The notes under the pieces are model-generated. The model was not told where the DNA came from. It searched no databases and saw nothing but the letters and a program-made list of their open reading frames with translations. From a virus: 64,000 nucleotides of DNA. Below are positions 1 through 62,973 of the stretch, one piece after another. Where the stretch lies: the IMG/VR virus record IMGVR_UViG_3300020416_000002. The stretch is one strand, 5' to 3'. Each line of letters opens with the position of its first letter. The stretch's first letter is position 1. A program made the position numbers and the translations under genes.

Positions 1-3000
1 ACTTCACCAGCAGCACGGTATGCAACACTGATACCATTAGTATCAGATCCATTTGTTCTTAAGTCAAATAATGTTGCACTAGAAAGACCAGTTGTATTAG
101 CGTATGCCCAGAATTCAATTGTGAAGTCTGTGTTTGTGCCAAATCCAAAATCTCCAGTAGAAGGAATACTTATAGAATCGTTAGTTCCATCAAGTGCGAG
201 AGACGCGGTTCCGAACTTCTTAACTGAAGTATCTAACTGAGCACCATCGTTAAATGTGACTGACTTAGCAGTTCTAGCATTAAGAACTTCAAATCCAGTT
301 TGTTTGCCAGTTACACCTAAGTAAGTTCCATCAAATGATGCGACAACAGCAGTTCCTAATCCAGTGGTTCCGTCAGTATCAAATAGAGTAATTGTATTAC
401 CAACACCAACTGTTGTAATACCTGACAATCTTAATCTAGTTTGACCAGCAGATGAAATACCTAATGATCCAGACTCACCCTTGATCGCTTCTGCAGCAAA
501 ATAAGTAAAGCAATTGATATACTCACAACGGGAACCGTTGGTTAATACAACACCTTTGCTGTTAGGTACAATAAATGTAACCTCATTGAACAGCATCGCT
601 GCCTCAAGCGATCCTGCTGCTACCTCAGAACCATCTAGGTATGCACCACCACCAGCAAGGAACGATGATGGATTTGAATCTGCAGAACCATAACCGTATG
701 GATCAGATGCAGTAACATTACTACCTTTGTTGAATACAGTTACACGCTGTACATAAGGTGATCTGCTAGTAATTGCAATGCCAGGTGCATACTTAAACGC
801 ATAACCTTCATTTGCTGATGTGTTGAAGAACATCTCAGCAACGGTAATATCCTCAACAACAGATCTGTCATTAAGTAAGAAAGCATCCTTTTGCTTGGTA
901 GCACTAGTAGGAATAATTTTAGTAGCACGAAGACCAGCACCCTTAACTGTTAAACCAGCAGGAACAGTAAGTGGGAATGTTTCTTGATAAACACCAGCAG
1001 CGATGTTTAGAACATCGTTAACACCGATATTTGAAATCTGTGACAGAGCATATGCAATTGTTCTGAATGGTCTCTCTGGTGTTCTACCACGAGATGCATC
1101 ACCATCGTCAACACCATTTGTAGATACAAACCATGTATCTAACTTAGCGTTGATTGTTGCAATACCAATCTGAGCAGGTTCTTTCCATGAAAGAGTGTTA
1201 TCAGGATTAGTACTCAACATATGCTGAGTGTTAATACCAACAACTCCTGTGGAGTCATATAGAGAGGTTATATAACCAGCACCAACCTTAAGGTTTACAA
1301 TATCTGCATCATTAACATCAATAACACCTGTGAAGGTTGCTGCAGTAGCTACAACAACATCAGTAACTGCTAATCCAGTCAAGGATAAACTATCAGCACT
1401 TAGATTTGTAACATGTGCAGTTGTGACAGTAGCATAAGTACCGACTAATGATGTAACAACACCAGCAGTAATTTTTGCATTAACTATGTCACCTTCTGTT
1501 GCGTCAATTGTTGTGATTGTAGCAGCAGTACCAACGATATCAGTAATGATACCAGCAGTGATCTTAACATCTTTAAGGTCAGCAGTCTCCGTGTCAAAAT
1601 TAGTAATCGTAGCGTAGGTGCCGACTATAGAAGTTACAACACCCGCAGTAATTTTGGCATTAACAATATCGCCTTCTGTTGCGTCAATTGTCGTAATTGT
1701 TGCAGCAGTACCAACGATATCAGTAATAATACCAGAGGTAATTTTTACATCTTTAAGATCTGCGGTCTCAGTATCAAAGTTTGTAATTGTGGCATATGTA
1801 CCAACTATAGATGTGACAACACCAGCAGTAATTTTAGCGTTGACAATATCGCCTTCTGTGGCATCGATAGTTGTTATAGTTGCTGCAGTACCAACGATAT
1901 CGGTGATAATACCAGCAGTAATCTTAGCATCAAGGATATCAGCAGAATCTAGATGTGCTGTACCATCAATGTAAATATCTCTCCACTCTCTATCTGTGGT
2001 TCCTAAATCATGAGTATCATCAGCAGCAGGATTAAACTTTTGGTTGATAGTCCAAGCAGCTCTTGATAGATCCCACTCAATAGTTTTATCTGTAGTACCC
2101 TTAAGTGTAATACCACCTCCAGAAGCGGAAGCGTCACTAGGTGACCCTGCAGTAGTTACACCAAGTTCAATGTTCTTATCATTGACTTGAAGAATAGCAC
2201 TTTGTAAATATGATGTTGTTCCTTCAACATCAAGGTTACCCTTGATTAAAGTGTCTCCAGTAACAGTTAATGCTCCACCAACTCTTGCATCTCTTGTAAC
2301 ATCTAAATCTCTAATAGTAGAGTATGTGCTGACTAGAGAAGTAACAATACCAGCAGTAATATTAGCGTTAACAGAATCTAAGTTGTCAAAATCTGCCTGT
2401 GTATATGTTACACCAAAACCAGATAGAGATGTAACAACACCAACTGTGATATATGCGTTAGTTGTTAGACCAACTTCATTGCGGAAATAAGTTGCGTCAA
2501 AATCAGTTGCTAAACCAGCAACAATTTTTGCTTGCTCAATATCAGCGTTAACAAAATCTACATTAGTGATGGTAGCAGCAGTACCAACTGTGTCTGTTAC
2601 AGCAAGTCCTGTAATGTTAACATCTCTAGCATCTAATGTCTCAATGTCTACAACACTGATGGTTGAGTAAGTACCAACATATGATGTTACAACACCTACA
2701 TCAATGTAAGCATTGGTGATAATACCAACTTGATTGACTAAATTGGTAATAGCAAAATCAGTTGCTAAACCAACAGTAACTTTAATATCTTCTACATCTG
2801 CATCTACAAAATCAACTCTTGTGATTGTTGCTGCAGTACCAACTGTGTCAGTGATAATACCTGACTGAATCTTGGCGTTAGTAATTGCAAAGTCTGTTGC
2901 TAAACCAGCAGTGACTTTAATGTCCTCAATGCCAATGTCATTAGCATCAATTTGAGGAACAGTAACAACTCCAGAAATACTTACATCACCATCTACAGTG

Positions 3001-57300: not shown

Positions 57301-59583
57301 ACTATCTGGTTCTGTTAATACATACCAATTATTTTGAAGTGAATCAAATTGTACTGGATGCCCAATAGTATTTGATGATTTATCACTAACTCTACTCTCT
57401 ATCCTTAGATCTGCACCACCATACAATGCAATGGGAATATTATTAATTGCATTAGAGAATGTCTTAGCAACCTTGAGTCCAGTTGGACTAGTCTTAATTG
57501 CAAAATATACTGTATTTGGTTGCAATCCTTCTGGTAAATCACCCGTATCACTAAACACACGGATTGTTTCACCCGTGATAATACCAATGTCCTGAATTGT
57601 CATTTCAAAATTGACATTTGGCACAGTCGCAGTGGAGAATTTAGTTCCTCTATGTGAATTAATACCAACATTAGCAGTGACACCAGCACCAGTCACATTC
57701 TCTGGCATATGAATTGGTGAACTAAATTCTGTACCACCAATAGATACATATAATTTTTCATTTAGATTTGCACCAATTCTAAATCCTTGAGTCAATTCAA
57801 GAGGGGGAAGATCCTCTTTGGTAAATCCTTTAAGATATAAATGTGATGATAGACCAACCTGTTGTGTTTTAGGAACATCTAATTGGAACCAAGTAATGTT
57901 GTCCAAATCATCATCATAGGTAGACACAAACTCAGGAGCAATCATATGAGTGATATACCCTTTGTCGTCTCTTGGGAAAGCTTGCTGTCTAAATCCATCA
58001 GTGATAAGAGATAACTGACCAAAGTTGGAGTTAGAGTTAGTGATAGATGCGTCAGCACCACTCTCACCAACAAAATGAGCGTTATAACCAATAGCGAACA
58101 CCGACACAATCTGTAAAACTGCGTCGTTAGTTATCTTGACATGGCATTGTTCCCATCCTCTTCTATAGATTGCTCTAGAGTCTAAGTGGTATACAGTGCT
58201 AGGGTCAGTAGAACTAGATTCTGCTGTTAATGCTGCACCTTTTACTGTAGGATATGCAATGGATTCATATAATCTTGTCTCTGGATTGTATTTTACAAAT
58301 GCACGGTCATCTTTTTGTAGAGAGATACCAGTGAACTGTGCAACAACCATTGAACGGAAACCAGTTGCTTTAGAACCGTCAGCATGCATACCATTCATAC
58401 CATAAACTGATCTCAACGAACAGTTAAAGATATATGGTGACGCACCTTTAACAGTATCAGACTCAATAGTTACTTTAGCTGAACTAATGTTAGTTGGTTT
58501 TGCAGGTAAATTGCTTGGGAAGTTTGGAATTAAATATGTAAACTGCGTCTCATCAATAATACTTTGTACTCTAGTAGATAAATTGTAAGGAGTTACATTG
58601 ACTCCACTAATCTTAATAGGTGTACCAGCAGTTAATCCATGCTCACCTTGAGTTGTTACAGTTACCTGTGCAGTAGGTGTTAATCCATCACCAGCAATAA
58701 TTGCAGCAATATTTAATGGGTCAGTACCAAGGGCACCAACAATCTCAAATTCTTCGCGAACTGCATCAAAATCACCCTCAAAGTTAGGCCACTCATAGTT
58801 GACAGCACGACCAGTTGGTTCCTGATATGCATAACTCAACTTGTAATAATACATGTTGAGGTCTGTTTTCTCATACCCCTTAACATCGTTAACACCATCA
58901 GCATACTCAAAGCATGTTAATTTATGGTGTGAGAATGTAGGTCTGGACTGATTCTGTGGTGTAAACTGTTGGTGATCAGTATAAACTAATCCATTAGGCA
59001 ATCCATCAAACATGGAGAATTGCCAAAAATAACAGTTACCAGTGATTCTGAACAATGAAGTTGCAGGGACACTATCATCTGTTGGGTTGGGGACATATAA
59101 AGGACGGATCTTAGTCTTTCTTAAGTCAAGACCAACGATAGATGTACCACGAGGTACAATCACACCACCATTAACTGAATTGAATTTGTAAAGAATATTA
59201 TCTTCTACTGTTAAATCAAACTCACTAGTTAGAGAAAGTGAGAATAGTGATGTTGCCAAACTCTCAGCACCTGCAGGAGAAACTCCAATTGCTCTAGTGG
59301 CATCTGTAGGATCTTCTTTAATACCAAAGCCAGGTCTGTTATCAACCTGATGTTCGCCAGGATATATTAAGATGGTAGTCTTATCACTCTCGTCGTTGTC
59401 TATACCTGATTGGTATGAAAATCTAGCAGACTCCAACAATGCTCGTTGAATTGTCTTGAAGGGTTTGGTTAAAGAGTTACCCTGATTAGTAATACTATCG
59501 GTAGAGTCCAAGTCATTTGGATTAACATAGAGAATCCTACCCTCAGTATTCTTAATAAAATTCTCTAACTTATTTAAAGGCAT
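54322..59583 (-). CDS. Tail fibre/tailspike with beta-helix and C-terminal peptidase S74 chaperone
   Basis: PFKTIQRAL beta-helix start; SDIAFKEN..GVIAQDVE..LIEAVKDL. Confidence 0.88.
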   Translation of the reverse strand: MPLNKLENFIKNTEGRILYVNPNDLDSTDSITNQGNSLTKPFKTIQRALLESARFSYQSGIDNDESDKTTILIYPGEHQVDNRPGFGIKEDPTDATRAIGVSPAGAESLATSLFSLSLTSEFDLTVEDNILYKFNSVNGGVIVPRGTSIVGLDLRKTKIRPLYVPNPTDDSVPATSLFRITGNCYFWQFSMFDGLPNGLVYTDHQQFTPQNQSRPTFSHHKLTCFEYADGVNDVKGYEKTDLNMYYYKLSYAYQEPTGRAVNYEWPNFEGDFDAVREEFEIVGALGTDPLNIAAIIAGDGLTPTAQVTVTTQGEHGLTAGTPIKISGVNVTPYNLSTRVQSIIDETQFTYLIPNFPSNLPAKPTNISSAKVTIESDTVKGASPYIFNCSLRSVYGMNGMHADGSKATGFRSMVVAQFTGISLQKDDRAFVKYNPETRLYESIAYPTVKGAALTAESSSTDPSTVYHLDSRAIYRRGWEQCHVKITNDAVLQIVSVFAIGYNAHFVGESGADASITNSNSNFGQLSLITDGFRQQAFPRDDKGYITHMIAPEFVSTYDDDLDNITWFQLDVPKTQQVGLSSHLYLKGFTKEDLPPLELTQGFRIGANLNEKLYVSIGGTEFSSPIHMPENVTGAGVTANVGINSHRGTKFSTATVPNVNFEMTIQDIGIITGETIRVFSDTGDLPEGLQPNTVYFAIKTSPTGLKVAKTFSNAINNIPIALYGGADLRIESRVSDKSSNTIGHPVQFDSLQNNWYVLTEPDSRIFSEIVNNPNVNTTTETDPSYFKRFEDNRSIENKLYKLRYVIPKEVDNSRDPVQGFVLQNTGSTGFAKTSDITATSITAKDHDFKRKYSFIATCSELSDTVTVRAELPHNVRVGDIVFTEDIADSNNPTAIAEKGYNGFYVVTAVPNNMEFQYSNTDTSGDKKNTGNYIEKNSNRTTDLPRFSINNNQGNFDVYRSTIISQYEKDESDGVYLLEVLASDYAPPTEFTNQKYSQQITDFYPQLDRDNIRKNPPPSVSFARRDPIGKVETNSILNSVTREAMNKFSTAFGVGLAVSSATPASSGISTIQLKGMHTFNGFVEHENLSPFNSGVGFAETTKYNVRLLDNSGNWQGATAIVTVGAGSTFITDLTIQSPGAGYTGGATLFPENFAGASIGVPTSSIINAVGNVVQFTGTGNTSDTYHVIQNVLDETSFTIGVTTTDPTVVSGQFAFVVGQSLGVSSTSFDTTTGITTFVTDSAHGLRQGNQFTLINGDNVKIGDFYIDAIATGVTSFTARTTNDPQVTVGAGSTFKILRHAHSDHDQKININEAIGSRFVQFYGGDMVGLKTDVANTDTSFPVQHASGIGTANRFQLGDYLEIGNEIVRVSSTGLGGAGNDSFSVLRGQMGTIPKSYPIGTPLKKMNILAVETRRPSILRASGHTFEYLGYGPGNYSTSLPQVQNRSLTEVEEYLSQAQNRSGGTVVYTGLNNRGDFFIGNKKINSATGQEKSFDIPIPTITGEDPSANSIVVDEITVKQRINVEGGAQQNILSQFDGPVTFTNDVNFTGKVVSSGSIELAGTIEFTGSFPSGANINNVKIGVGTNKTEITTKFGVGDLVLNAAPGFKVAIATDTAYDAPVTFNQDVEFTGFTTFSGDFFHSGAGVTFCGGPVHFCDDIIAFYGQTSDIAFKENVSTLDDPISKVMQIRGTEYDWKNNKNYTGHDIGVIAQDVEKVLPEAVSTKPDGTKGVHYNKLIPLLIEAVKDLSQQVDDIKDK

Positions 59584-59614
59584 CTCTCTATTATAAGATA
59601 CATTGTGCTTCTGT

Positions 59615-59634
59615 TATTTAGTCATCGATAAATA
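59615..59634. promoter_or_regulatory. Back-to-back late promoters
   Basis: TAAATA on minus (59615-59620) and ATAAATA on plus (59628-59634) between divergent genes. Confidence 0.55.
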
Positions 59635-59653
59635 CTTCATTGGTAATAAATAG

Positions 59654-59923
59654 ATGGACTTTCAAAAAATAGCATCCACAGGTACAGCAGTCGTAGTAGT
59701 AGGGACTGGTGCCGTTGTTGGTGGAAATCAAGCACTTGACCATTATAGTGGCGGTCCTCAAAAAAGGCAAGACGCTCAAATTGAGCAAATTAAACAAATA
59801 GTTAGAGAAGAGGTATATAAACAATTAGTAGAGGCATGGCCTGTAACTAGCGGACCTGTTAAGGGAACTAAACTTCCTACAAAAGATTATAAAGAGGTAT
59901 TACCAAATGCCAGAAATAAATGA
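59654..59923 (+). CDS. N-terminally anchored small protein
   Basis: 89 aa; hydrophobic TAVVVVGTGAVVGG plus a helical segment. Confidence 0.7.
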   Translation: MDFQKIASTGTAVVVVGTGAVVGGNQALDHYSGGPQKRQDAQIEQIKQIVREEVYKQLVEAWPVTSGPVKGTKLPTKDYKEVLPNARNK

Positions 59924-60785
59924 CATATCCAATACTATACCTAATATTAATGTAAATGGTAATTATATTAATGTTAGAGGTATTAGATTTATTAACCCAA
60001 GGATTAAAGAAATTAGTGATGTTCAAGTCAACACAAGCAGAATTTGGTTAACTGAACCTCCACAAGCAATACCTCCTGTAGTTCCTGTAACAGAAATTGT
60101 AGGTACTCCCATAGTCAACATGCCTGGTTGTGTCAAAGTGCATAAAGAAAATGCACAGAAAGATCCATCTAGGAATAAGATGTTGGTCAATGATGATCCA
60201 AAACAAAATGTGGTTCTGTGTGACAATGGCATGCCATACTATGAACCACCAGATTATGACTATAGAGAACTAACATGGACAACAGTTAATACCGAACCTG
60301 AAGAGGCAGAGGGAGTAAACACTGGTGAACCACCTGCACCAGAATTCAATAGTCCCGAACCTCCTAATACAGGTGGAGCAACTGCTAATACTATTGAGTG
60401 TCCTCCACCTAATGCAAGAAGAATTGGTGATCTATCACAAAATGGTGAAGAAAGAGTTAAAGAATATAAATTGACACCTGATGGTCTAATCTGTGAGACA
60501 ATTTGGGAACCTGTTCCCACAATGGATCAGTTCCTACCTTCAGTACCTGTAGTCAGCACTACGGCAACGATAGCTGCCGTGGCCACGACTTCGGCACTGT
60601 TAGCAAAACCTCTTGCTGATCTTCTTTTGAAGGTTGTAAAACCTGTTGTGAAGAAGACGATTGCGAAGGTAAAAGAGAAGTTCCTAGGGAAGATAGATCG
60701 TCGCCCGAATCGTTCTGAACGGATGTCTGATCAGTATCGGGAGAAGAAAGGACTTCCTCCTTTGAAGAAGAAGAGGGTGAAGTAG
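59907..60785 (+). CDS. Pro/Cys-containing protein with C-terminal TM and basic tail
   Basis: 292 aa; four Cys; TTATIAAVATTSALLA followed by a K-rich tail. Confidence 0.8.
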   Translation: MPEINDISNTIPNINVNGNYINVRGIRFINPRIKEISDVQVNTSRIWLTEPPQAIPPVVPVTEIVGTPIVNMPGCVKVHKENAQKDPSRNKMLVNDDPKQNVVLCDNGMPYYEPPDYDYRELTWTTVNTEPEEAEGVNTGEPPAPEFNSPEPPNTGGATANTIECPPPNARRIGDLSQNGEERVKEYKLTPDGLICETIWEPVPTMDQFLPSVPVVSTTATIAAVATTSALLAKPLADLLLKVVKPVVKKTIAKVKEKFLGKIDRRPNRSERMSDQYREKKGLPPLKKKRVK

Positions 60786-61896
60786 ACCACTTAGGTTGAG
60801 GTAATTGATGTTCATGTGGAATAACTACACCACCTGGTTGAGTTACTACCACATCAGCACAAATAGCGTGGTAAGGAGAAGCAGGGTGGAAAAATATGCC
60901 CTGTTTTTTTAATTCTCCACAATTTTTTAACCTCGCGATCTCAAAATCTAATCTTTTATTAGCAGTGACTTGTTGTACAGATGCTATCTGTGCCTCTGCT
61001 GCCTGCTCACACTGGTCTCTTAGTTTTTTATTTAATGGTATGGATAAAGTAGCAGACAGTCCAGCATTAAATGACTGGTTTGCTCTCATGTCAGTCCTTA
61101 CTGGTTTATACCATGTTGGTGCCATGTTACCACCTGACACTGCATCAGGTATACCATCAGGACCATCTACATCAATTTCAATCTCAATACTTTCGCCATC
61201 CTCAAACCATCTACTACCATCATCTTTAGTTCTTGTGTCATACCATGACTCCCAAGGGTAGTTCTTTACTGTGACTGTTTGTTTAGTAGTCTTACCAGAC
61301 AAGTCAGTCATATTATATTGTGGTTCATTGTAGAAATCTTCCCAAGGATGTTTTCTACTGTCGGCAAACTGAATATATGGCGTAATGTTTAGTGTACTAC
61401 CTTGACACTGCACACCACCACCGTAGGTGTTAGTTATGTATGGACCTTGTAAAACTTGTATTGCCTGGTTGGTGACTGAGCCCGAACTATTCGCAATGGG
61501 ATTAGCTGTTGCACTTACACCCCCTACACCTTCCGCCATTGTGACAGGGACATGTGCAAGTTGAGTTAGACATAGTGCTATTGGGTAAAGGTACTTGTTG
61601 TGTCTGTTACGCTTTCTATTACCGTTGTTCTCTGGATTAGGGTTTGATTTGTCATACCTGGTCCAGAATAACTCTGTGAAAATTGGAAAGCCTGTCCTGG
61701 ACTGGACAGTGTGAAGTTGTTTTGACTTGATAGATCTAAGGCATCGAATGAAGAGGTTACCTGACCTGTCACGGCTGTGCCGTTTGTTGCCGTTGCTGAA
61801 GTGCTTGGCGTTACTGTTACTGTTGATGTGTTCACTGGGGGATTCAAAGGTTGACCGTTGTTGTCGATCCCTACCCCTGTCACTGAGTACTCCCAT
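60559..61896 (-). CDS. Exported/membrane cyanophage protein with overprinted N-terminus
   Basis: Core GGVSATANPIANSSGSVTNQAIQV..RLDFEIARLKNCGEL, preceded by a signal-like segment; the only upstream in-frame ATG is 61896. Confidence 0.75.
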   Translation of the reverse strand: MGVLSDRGRDRQQRSTFESPSEHINSNSNAKHFSNGNKRHSRDRSGNLFIRCLRSIKSKQLHTVQSRTGFPIFTELFWTRYDKSNPNPENNGNRKRNRHNKYLYPIALCLTQLAHVPVTMAEGVGGVSATANPIANSSGSVTNQAIQVLQGPYITNTYGGGVQCQGSTLNITPYIQFADSRKHPWEDFYNEPQYNMTDLSGKTTKQTVTVKNYPWESWYDTRTKDDGSRWFEDGESIEIEIDVDGPDGIPDAVSGGNMAPTWYKPVRTDMRANQSFNAGLSATLSIPLNKKLRDQCEQAAEAQIASVQQVTANKRLDFEIARLKNCGELKKQGIFFHPASPYHAICADVVVTQPGGVVIPHEHQLPQPKWSTSPSSSSKEEVLSSPDTDQTSVQNDSGDDLSSLGTSLLPSQSSSSQQVLQPSKEDQQEVLLTVPKSWPRQLSLP

Positions 61897-62054
61897 CCTG
61901 TTCTATAATCAATTGAATTTATTGTCTCCGTAACGGTAGATGTAGTTTCCGTGTGGCTCGTCATTGAGCCTTGTTGGAAATTTGGGACCACGGGCACCGC
62001 ATTAGCAGTACCCGTACTACCTAGTAAGACTATAATAGTTATAAGTCTTTTCAT
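61578..62054 (-). CDS. Secreted Ser/Thr-rich protein
   Basis: Signal peptide MKRLITIIVLL..ANA|VPVVPNF. Confidence 0.85.
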   Translation of the reverse strand: MKRLITIIVLLGSTGTANAVPVVPNFQQGSMTSHTETTSTVTETINSIDYRTGWEYSVTGVGIDNNGQPLNPPVNTSTVTVTPSTSATATNGTAVTGQVTSSFDALDLSSQNNFTLSSPGQAFQFSQSYSGPGMTNQTLIQRTTVIESVTDTTSTFTQ

Positions 62055-62063
62055 TAGGCATAT

Positions 62064-62579
62064 CTACTTCACGGTAAGTTCTGATACGAATTGTCCAGTA
62101 GCTGAAGTTCCAGCTCCACCAGCAGTGATTGTCATCACACCTGCAGAGGTGATTGTACCAGCTAATGTTCCTGCGACACCTCCCGATTGAGTGGTAACCT
62201 GTCCGTATGCAGGCATGTCTGCGACAATACCACTAGTGACATCTACACCTGTACCAATTGGATTTACAGCGTCCCCTGCAATGAAGGATTCAGAGAAGCT
62301 AAATGCAGATCCACTAGTATTTAATTCGTATGTGCCTTGGGTTTGTGTAGCTGCAGCTGCAGTTGAACTCTTAGTAATACCACCAAAAGTAGCAGAGTCC
62401 GATACCTTGATATTGTTGCCACTAACGGAATAAGTTGATCCCAGCCTTGTAGCTTGAGTCGCTGCTCCATCTACACTGAGTTGTGTGCTAGTCGTCAATC
62501 GATGCACCAAGTCGGCATTTGCAGGAGCTCCAAGAAGACCTGCACTTGCAAGCATAATCAATGAAAAAATTCTTTTCAT
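62064..62579 (-). CDS. Secreted Gly/Ser/Thr-rich beta protein
   Basis: Signal peptide MKRIFSLIML..ANA|DLVH; ends ATGQFVSELTVK. Confidence 0.85.
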   Translation of the reverse strand: MKRIFSLIMLASAGLLGAPANADLVHRLTTSTQLSVDGAATQATRLGSTYSVSGNNIKVSDSATFGGITKSSTAAAATQTQGTYELNTSGSAFSFSESFIAGDAVNPIGTGVDVTSGIVADMPAYGQVTTQSGGVAGTLAGTITSAGVMTITAGGAGTSATGQFVSELTVK

Positions 62580-62634
62580 TTGACAGTATTAGACTATGTA
62601 CAGTATATATATCTAAAAAAATCTTAATTTATTA

Positions 62635-62973
62635 TTAAACCTTAAAAGGCACTGACTCACTAGGTTCTAGCATTTCATCTAGTGGTTCAAAAGGTAGTCT
62701 CTCCTTTGCTTTTGGTAGTCCTTGTTGACCAGGCAATTCATCTACACCCTTTGCAGTAGTATCAATTACTTGATCTAGAATAGGTGCATTAATTTTTTTG
62801 TAGTAAAGGTTCTTCCTATCTGCTACGATAGAACAAGTTCTATTCAATTCAACAAGTTCTCGTGCGTGTTTCTCCCATCCACAGTCACAATACTGTTCAC
62901 CTTTCTCTGTATATACCCTATAAAATGGATACATGTGATAAGGAATAGTTCCTCTTTTTGGTTCGTTAGTCAT
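62635..62973 (-). CDS. Hypothetical protein
   Basis: 112 aa; YCDCGWE. Confidence 0.7.
   Translation of the reverse strand: MTNEPKRGTIPYHMYPFYRVYTEKGEQYCDCGWEKHARELVELNRTCSIVADRKNLYYKKINAPILDQVIDTTAKGVDELPGQQGLPKAKERLPFEPLDEMLEPSESVPFKV

Follow-up and report, generated by a model that had tools for sequence, protein, structure and literature searches.

We wanted to know where translation of T4-GC235 begins, a gene whose reading frame stays open far into T4-GC236, the gene directly upstream of it. The two genes (from here on, GC236 and GC235) lie in a stretch of 64,000 nucleotides (nt) of IMG/VR virus record IMGVR_UViG_3300020416_000002, which comes from a marine T4-like cyanomyovirus (Kyanoviridae) and will be referred to as the window. 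We consider it quite probable that GC235 is translated from an ATG inside GC236, in the −1 frame of that gene, and that its product would carry a disordered presequence ahead of its signal peptide. A sequence-only reading of the window, made without database searches, had pointed to a frame that stays open for 106 codons within GC236, back to an ATG formed by GGA-TGG just after two in-frame stops, and the coordinates that we obtained agree with it. Its statement that GC235 has no nearby start codon does not hold, because the window has an ATG, that of a MAEG sequence, at 61539..61537, which the same reading had itself listed as a competing start. The features that bear on the question are the following (aa, amino acids; ORF, open reading frame).

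61578..62054, minus strand: GC236, the upstream gene; 158 aa, with signal peptide MKRLITIIVLLGSTGTANA and Pfam domain DUF6322.
60559..61896, minus strand: the long ORF, 445 aa, the conserved part of which is GC235.
61894..61896, minus strand: the proposed GC235 start, an ATG in the −1 frame made up of the last base of GGA and the first two bases of the single Trp codon in GC236.
61578..61896, minus strand: the putative dual-coding overlap, 319 nt or 106 codons, corresponding to residues 1-106 of the long ORF.
61534..61617, minus strand: a signal-peptide-like segment, residues 94-121, comprising the n-region RKRNRHNK, a hydrophobic region and TMA/EG (the slash marks the predicted cleavage site).
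61537..61539, minus strand: the MAEG ATG, a local start that is particular to the window and lies 2 residues short of the predicted cleavage site.
60559..61533, minus strand: mature GC235 from E122, plus the stop codon; match to phrog_848 with E 1e-100.

The ATG at 61896..61894 is formed by the GGA-TGG of a TGWEY motif, in the −1 frame of GC236, and sits 107 codons ahead of the GC236 stop. In-frame stops are found 3 and 5 codons 5' of it (61905..61903 and 61911..61909), and there are none in the 106 codons after it; the second frame encodes the peptide STFESPSEHINSNSNAK. We then counted silent-stop sites, i.e. GC236 codons that could end in T without changing the amino acid and would thereby create TAA, TAG or TGA in the second frame. 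The overlap contains exactly 16 such sites, none of which carries T, as the sequence-only reading had found by a hand count. The part of GC236 that lies 5' of the ATG contains 9 sites, and the four stops that had been reported there were recovered by our script (4/9). With amino-acid-specific codon usage taken from the 19 other genes of the window (14,784 codons), 8.9 stops would be expected in the overlap, and the probability of finding none is 9e-7.

An open frame of this kind could be a compositional artefact, either because a GC236 rich in Thr, Ser, Gly and Asn gives few stops in the −1 frame or because T is avoided before AA, AG or GA on grounds that have nothing to do with translation. 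It is true that GC236 has fewer silent-stop sites per codon (16/106) than the window average (3,587/14,784). However, when codon usage was conditioned on the following AA/AG/GA context, 9.7 stops were still expected (P = 9e-8), and GC236 itself, as described above, does acquire stops ahead of the ATG. Further, stops occur at 0.145 per codon in the −1 frame of the 19 control genes, which is nowhere open for more than 75 codons.

We compared 163 unique cyanomyovirus junctions (IMG/VR and annotated phages) with GC235 immediately after GC236. In all 163 of these intact junctions, the second frame runs without a stop from an internal GC236 ATG as far as the GC235 domain. Conserved openness across homologous gene pairs, which the sequence-only reading had proposed as a check, is therefore borne out, and close homologues with stops scattered in this frame, which it had named as evidence to the contrary, do not occur among the 163. 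Over the whole set, T was found at 0 of 2,064 silent-stop sites inside the overlaps, compared with 559 of 1,531 (37%) outside them. The junctions fall into two classes. The 78 sequences of class I, including the window, have the start in ACA GGA TGG, 98-110 codons before the GC236 stop, whereas the 85 sequences of class II have it in xCA TGG within an SSW motif, 56-58 codons before that stop. The internal ATG is invariant in both (78/78 and 85/85). ACA GGA TGG is present in 77 of the 78 class I junctions, with GCA GGA TGG in the remaining one, and the Gly codon behind the A of this ATG, GGA throughout class I (78/78), is GGA in only 34/85 sequences of class II. As the frame opens at its own ATG in each class, each class serves as a control for the other. 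The counts of T at silent-stop sites, by columns of the GC236 alignment, are as follows.

Columns 0-32, overlapped in neither class: class I 193/547 (35%), class II 171/537 (32%).
Columns 34-88, overlapped in class I only: class I 0/594, class II 195/447 (44%).
Columns 90-146, overlapped in both classes: class I 0/724, class II 0/746.

The second of these lines contradicts the compositional explanation, since the same columns hold abundant T in one class and 0% in the other, and we give that explanation practically no chance of being correct. Overall, the comparison indicates that the GC236/GC235 junction is a genuine, conserved and long dual-coding overlap. A tree of GC235 with a total length of 18 substitutions per site contains one class switch, with class II monophyletic, which suggests that, root permitting, the short overlap of class II is the derived state.

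The position of the start follows from the genetic code. Any ATG, GTG or TTG in the second frame takes its TG from the first two bases of a GC236 codon, and the only amino acids with such codons are Trp and Cys. In 156/163 junctions there is a single Trp or Cys codon in mature GC236, and the ATG is built on it. Further, the n-region of the GC235 signal is encoded by the last ~12 codons of GC236 (…TDTTSxFxQ and the stop codon), which contain neither Trp nor Cys, so that no canonical start is possible immediately before the n-region. We thus attribute the far-upstream start to the restriction of second-frame starts to the Trp and Cys codons of GC236. The two classes differ accordingly in their aromatic residues: at column 34, all 78 class I sequences have W and 79/85 class II sequences have Y, and at column 90, all 85 class II sequences have W and 64/78 class I sequences have F or Y. 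This swap tracks the start site, which implies that the start codon of GC235 dictates which aromatic residue GC236 carries there. In other words, an overprinted gene would be shaping the older protein, with the choice between Trp and Tyr/Phe at two positions of GC236 set by the start codon of its neighbor.

The sequence-only reading had offered, as its second alternative, an early −1 frameshift. Here, ribosomes would slip near the point where the frame opens, by a programmed event, and produce a fusion of the GC236 N terminus to GC235 at a fixed ratio. In favor of this idea, the second frame stands at −1 relative to GC236 and opens a few codons before the ATG (0-28 codons in most loci), and a Shine-Dalgarno-like GGAG, of a type able to stimulate frameshifting, lies upstream in class II. 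However, across the 163 sequences, neither class has a conserved slippery site, be it an X XXY YYZ heptamer or one of the A-AAG type, at the opening or beyond it; recurrent heptamers are found only at columns 4-5, far upstream and behind stops, and the sequence at the opening point itself, ACA GGA TGG or TCA TGG, is not slippery. A frameshift would have no need of an ATG that is invariant in 163/163 junctions, and the two classes open at different ATGs. It would also yield a product bearing two signal sequences. Because a conserved slippery site is lacking from the junctions, the ATG is invariant and a stop directly abuts the ATG in two loci (L140 and L147), we regard a frameshift fusion as very unlikely, and this part of the earlier proposal finds no support.

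We next consider the segment that joins the overlap to mature GC235. In the window, the RKRNRHNK n-region lies inside the overlap, and the hydrophobic part starts across the GC236 stop (TAG, 61578..61580). With the signal peptide called by simple rules rather than by a trained predictor, the residue at −1 of the predicted cleavage site is Ala in 159/163 and Ser in 4/163 sequences, that at −3 is A, S, V or T in 160/163, and that at +1 is Glu in 128/163. The 12-residue n-region has a mean net charge of +3.5, and the hydrophobic and c-regions together are 15 aa long (median), with a Kyte-Doolittle hydropathy that averages 1.5 in the 163 sequences. These properties fit a Sec-type signal that would be cleaved by signal peptidase I.

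The signal-like segment bears directly on a further possibility, namely that GC235 is initiated locally, at the MAEG ATG or at a non-canonical ATA, GTA or ATT near the GC236 stop, and that the long frame is an unused relic. The window does have an ATG at 61539, the annotated start in P-SSM2 is a GTG within the hydrophobic segment, and ATG, GTG or TTG occurs sporadically in the hydrophobic region of some homologues. However, the Met of MAEG is replaced by Leu or another residue in nearly all homologues (TLAEG, ALAEG and ARAE), so that the local start, which the sequence-only reading had set against an overprinted extension, is not conserved, and none of the 163 junctions contains a conserved start codon between the GC236 stop and the cleavage site or mature domain. 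A protein begun at the MAEG ATG would be without a signal peptide, and local initiation in general would cost GC235 its conserved basic n-region and the greater part of the hydrophobic core, both of which are retained in two loci, L094 and L155, in which the genes are uncoupled.

In L094, an HNH endonuclease-like ORF (177 aa, 865-1398, minus strand; named by sequence motifs alone) is situated between GC236 and GC235, with a degenerate second copy of the final ~40 nt of GC236 still present ahead of GC235. Here, the GC235 ORF begins with an ATG of its own, 29 codons before the cleavage site, and a T-ending codon of GC236 now yields TGA in the second frame. The signal peptide of GC235 in L155 is likewise a conventional one that starts with Met and has the usual length. 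In both uncoupled variants, the Met is thus located 25-30 residues before the same cleavage site, which implies that the long extension is dispensable for GC235 itself. We conclude from this comparison that the long extension goes with the tight GC236-GC235 junction. The same loci speak to the fate of an unused frame, which should gain stops, as it has in class II upstream of the ATG (44% T) and in L094, and yet the window remains at 0/16. Because a frame that has been released fills with stops and the overlap nevertheless stays open despite divergence, local initiation fails to account for the data, and we consider it improbable.

The first alternative of the sequence-only reading, an overprinted extension of ~100 aa that would serve as a very long signal n-region or a cytoplasmic tail, therefore receives strong comparative support: the frame is open in all junctions, the MAEG start is not conserved and the rules for signal peptidase cleavage are obeyed. 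Under this preferred reading, ribosomes would initiate at the ATG inside GC236 in the −1 frame and would produce a pre-protein of three parts. The first would be about 93 hydrophilic, basic and disordered residues overprinted on GC236; the second, a Sec-type signal with a basic n-region, a hydrophobic core and A-x-A; and the third, the conserved GC235 domain, presumably freed by signal peptidase I at A121/E122. The extension would then chiefly be a tolerated spacer and not a sequence-specific domain. In class II, initiation has a plausible basis, as GGAGTGA is conserved at −14..−8 (e.g. at about 1884-1890 in L084), with a silent third-position G at −9 that is invariant in 85/85 sequences; GGAGTGA is likely a Shine-Dalgarno element within the coding sequence of GC236. 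The class I ATG has an AU-rich stretch upstream and an invariant A at −3. We note that, on reading the window DNA, no Shine-Dalgarno sequence was seen before the start of GC236 itself. Further, 65 positions of the PHROG 848 profile precede the point at which mature GC235 begins to match, and several public annotations call the long ORF.

Several observations weigh against initiation at the internal ATG and the extension that would result from it. No Shine-Dalgarno-like motif precedes the class I ATG, and the predicted accessibility of the RNA at the ATG is no more than moderately high for class I (near the 70th percentile) and low for class II (35th percentile). A signal ~100 residues from the N terminus is atypical for bacterial Sec substrates; that of the long ORF occupies residues 94-121, and a signal within ~30 residues of the N terminus is found only in L094 and L155. 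The sequence of the extension is poorly conserved, with a pairwise identity of 39-47% in the second frame, largely forced by GC236, compared with 67-80% in the GC236 frame. The depressed synonymous variation that the sequence-only reading had predicted is weak at best, as the ratio of synonymous-codon differences in the overlap to those outside it is 0.68-0.98 in class I and 0.85-1.65 in class II. The depletion of T at third positions that are unable to make stops, described below, leans on a codon-usage reference from neighboring genes. Finally, our literature search found no ribosome profiling or N-terminal proteomics of cyanophages.

The low identity in the second frame and the barely lowered synonymous differences imply that the extension is not conserved as a sequence. 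Nucleotide diversity in GC236 is about 0.5 at codon position 3, inside the overlap and outside it alike, and 0.08-0.32 at positions 1 and 2, which, together with the identities given above, indicates that GC236 is the older, dominant frame. What is selected in the overlap is the absence of stops and the composition of the product rather than its peptide sequence. When GC236 was silently recoded without creating stops, hydrophobic residues were expected to make up 41% of the second frame but account for 25% (z −4.7 in class I and −2.4 in class II); similarly, aromatic residues and Cys together amount to 11% compared with 28% expected. T is also scarcer in class I than in class II (19% compared with 45%, same columns) at third positions where no stop could arise. 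We also considered separate selection for positive charge and rejected it, as the net charge is +14.3 compared with +13.5 expected in class I (z 0.2) and +7.4 compared with +4.9 in class II (z 1.0). The extension is thus basic, as the sequence-only reading had described it, but this property is given automatically by stop-free recoding of GC236. The AlphaFold2 confidence score (predicted local distance difference test, pLDDT) is <50 at residues 1-47 and 54-98 of the long ORF. The resulting picture, which combines sequence statistics with structure prediction, is of an overlap product that is probably a translated, hydrophilic and disordered presequence.

Four class I loci have a long gap after the GC236 stop, namely L004, L007 and L010 (104-nt spacer) and L046 (92-nt spacer). 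Their spacers encode a second basic stretch (e.g. RNARRIYR) before the hydrophobic core. None of the four has a local start; the distant ATG is kept, and T is found at 0 of the 16-19 risky sites in each. This continued use of the distant ATG is a hint that chance is not the whole explanation. It is conceivable, although we hold it to be rather unlikely, that the overprinted segment works in the system, either as a basic, membrane-anchored leader of ~120 residues that acts cytoplasmically after cleavage, in the manner of the long signal peptides of retroviruses, or through translational coupling of GC235 to GC236, which would set the ratio of the exported partners. A working leader or coupling would explain why the arrangement is kept throughout the family, even where a spacer of 92-104 nt would allow a local start to arise easily.

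Same-strand, out-of-frame overlaps are known from other phages, including the spanin pairs Rz/Rz1 of lambda (embedded) and LysB/LysC of P2 (overlapped) and the D/E genes of phiX174. As in spanin pairs, the second gene at our locus starts within the first, on the same strand and in another frame, and, as in the overlapped type, runs past its end; the products are directed to the envelope by a signal sequence, and the overlap is conserved across relatives. The differences are equally clear. Spanin genes of this kind start directly before the lipoprotein signal, whereas the start of GC235 lies 56-107 codons upstream, so that the overlap encodes a long presequence, and the GC235 site is A-x-A/E, of the signal peptidase I type, without the lipobox Cys of a spanin lipoprotein. 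We therefore rejected a spanin or lipobox reading: in the cases with a Cys (IALC and AALC), Leu is at −1, and many homologues have no Cys; further, GC236 carries a cleavable signal and no anchor, and neither partner has the layout of a spanin. These phages have genomes of 170-250 kb, so that pressure on genome size offers no ready explanation. Extended dual coding on one strand is considered rare in large double-stranded DNA phages, in which genome size is not limiting.

The presequence has its own counterparts elsewhere. Extended signal peptide regions are found in autotransporters and two-partner secretion proteins (PMC2805444), and the signal peptide of HERV-K(HML-2) Env is a cleaved leader of about 13 kDa that is a product in its own right (PMC2649029). 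GC235 resembles these in having an N-terminal extension before an otherwise normal signal of n-, h- and c-regions. However, the extensions of autotransporters are far shorter than the 93 residues of GC235, have a conserved motif and are not overprinted, whereas that of GC235 is unconserved in sequence, comes in two lengths and is absent from the uncoupled variants. The arrangement, as deduced from the junctions, combines a known kind of phage gene overlap, out of frame, with a presequence of exceptional length ahead of a signal peptide. If true, it means that a bacterial-type signal sequence can lie ~100 residues from the N terminus. It also provides an unusually clean comparative case, with two classes that control for each other, a rule for the start that follows from the genetic code and a natural uncoupling by insertion of a homing endonuclease.

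The overlap further explains a recurring inconsistency in the annotation of GC236 (DUF6322) and GC235. Five of the 7 public annotations that we inspected, those of S-SSM7 (L001), P-SSM7 (L002), S-SM2 (L085), ACG-2014i (L084) and P-RSM6 (L087), include the long GC235 ORF and, since it covers GC236, leave the latter out; in S-SSM7, a 30-aa ORF is called in its place. In P-SSM2 (L003), GC236 is kept and GC235 is truncated at the GTG inside the signal peptide, and in S-RIM12 (L086) both overlapping ORFs are annotated. A cassette of T4-GC 218, 219, 234, 235 and 237, to which no function was assigned, has been described in 15 of 16 cyanomyoviruses (Sullivan et al. 2010, PMC3037559). This is the same cluster: GC237, GC235 and a convergent GC234 are present in the window. 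GC236 is not in its list. A search by terms of that main text gave no mention of overlapping genes or signal peptides, and our literature search found no description of the GC236/GC235 overlap.

The region is matched in 398 phage records by blastn and in 413 by tblastn, nearly all of them myoviruses of Synechococcus and Prochlorococcus. GC236 matches Pfam DUF6322 with E 6e-33 and phrog_650 with E 1e-47. GC235 has a conserved core until about residue 363, followed by a variable tail rich in Ser, Pro and Gln, and the invariant columns span G125 to H363 (alignment A1). A Pfam search with GC235 gave no match, and the PHROG families carry no function. AlphaFold2, run with a 58-sequence alignment, gave a mean pLDDT of 56, with moderate confidence for the core (residues 160-360). 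In fold searches, the best hit of Foldseek against the PDB had an E of 0.36, and a wide search with VIA-align reached at best Z 4.9, on a long helix only; no match to a known fold emerged from them.

GC237, GC236 and GC235 are all on the minus strand, and GC234, on the plus strand, converges on GC235. The neighboring features are the following.

62064..62579, minus strand: a T4-GC237 paralogue, 171 aa, with an N-terminal signal peptide, which heads the three-gene run.
59907..60785, plus strand: T4-GC234, convergent with GC235.
60559..60785, both strands: a second, putative dual-coding stretch of 227 nt, between the GC235 tail and the 3' end of GC234.

Ordinary signal peptides open both GC237 and GC236. 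GC237 matches phrog_564 (E 1e-51) and, weakly, DUF6322 (E 0.0015), and the GC237 label is present in the annotations of P-SSM2, P-SSM7 and S-SM2. At 62580-62625 (minus strand), ~25-35 nt before GC237 begins, is an AT-rich TATATATA-like stretch from which, as a possible late promoter, the GC237-GC236-GC235 run might be transcribed. A sigma-70 scan gave no promoter at this stretch, and a scan of 59500-62800 for promoters and terminators gave no excess over shuffled sequences and none within GC236 on the coding strand.

Finally, we examined the 3' end of GC235, where it runs antisense to GC234. Convergent GC235/GC234 overlaps measure 16-329 nt in 132 unique loci; in S-SSM7 the overlap is absent, and an oxygenase gene lies between the two genes. 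When GC234 was silently recoded, a mean of 6.75 stops was expected in the GC235 frame, and the probability of finding none was 0.0002. This stop-free antisense overlap implies that GC235 may be dual-coded at both ends.

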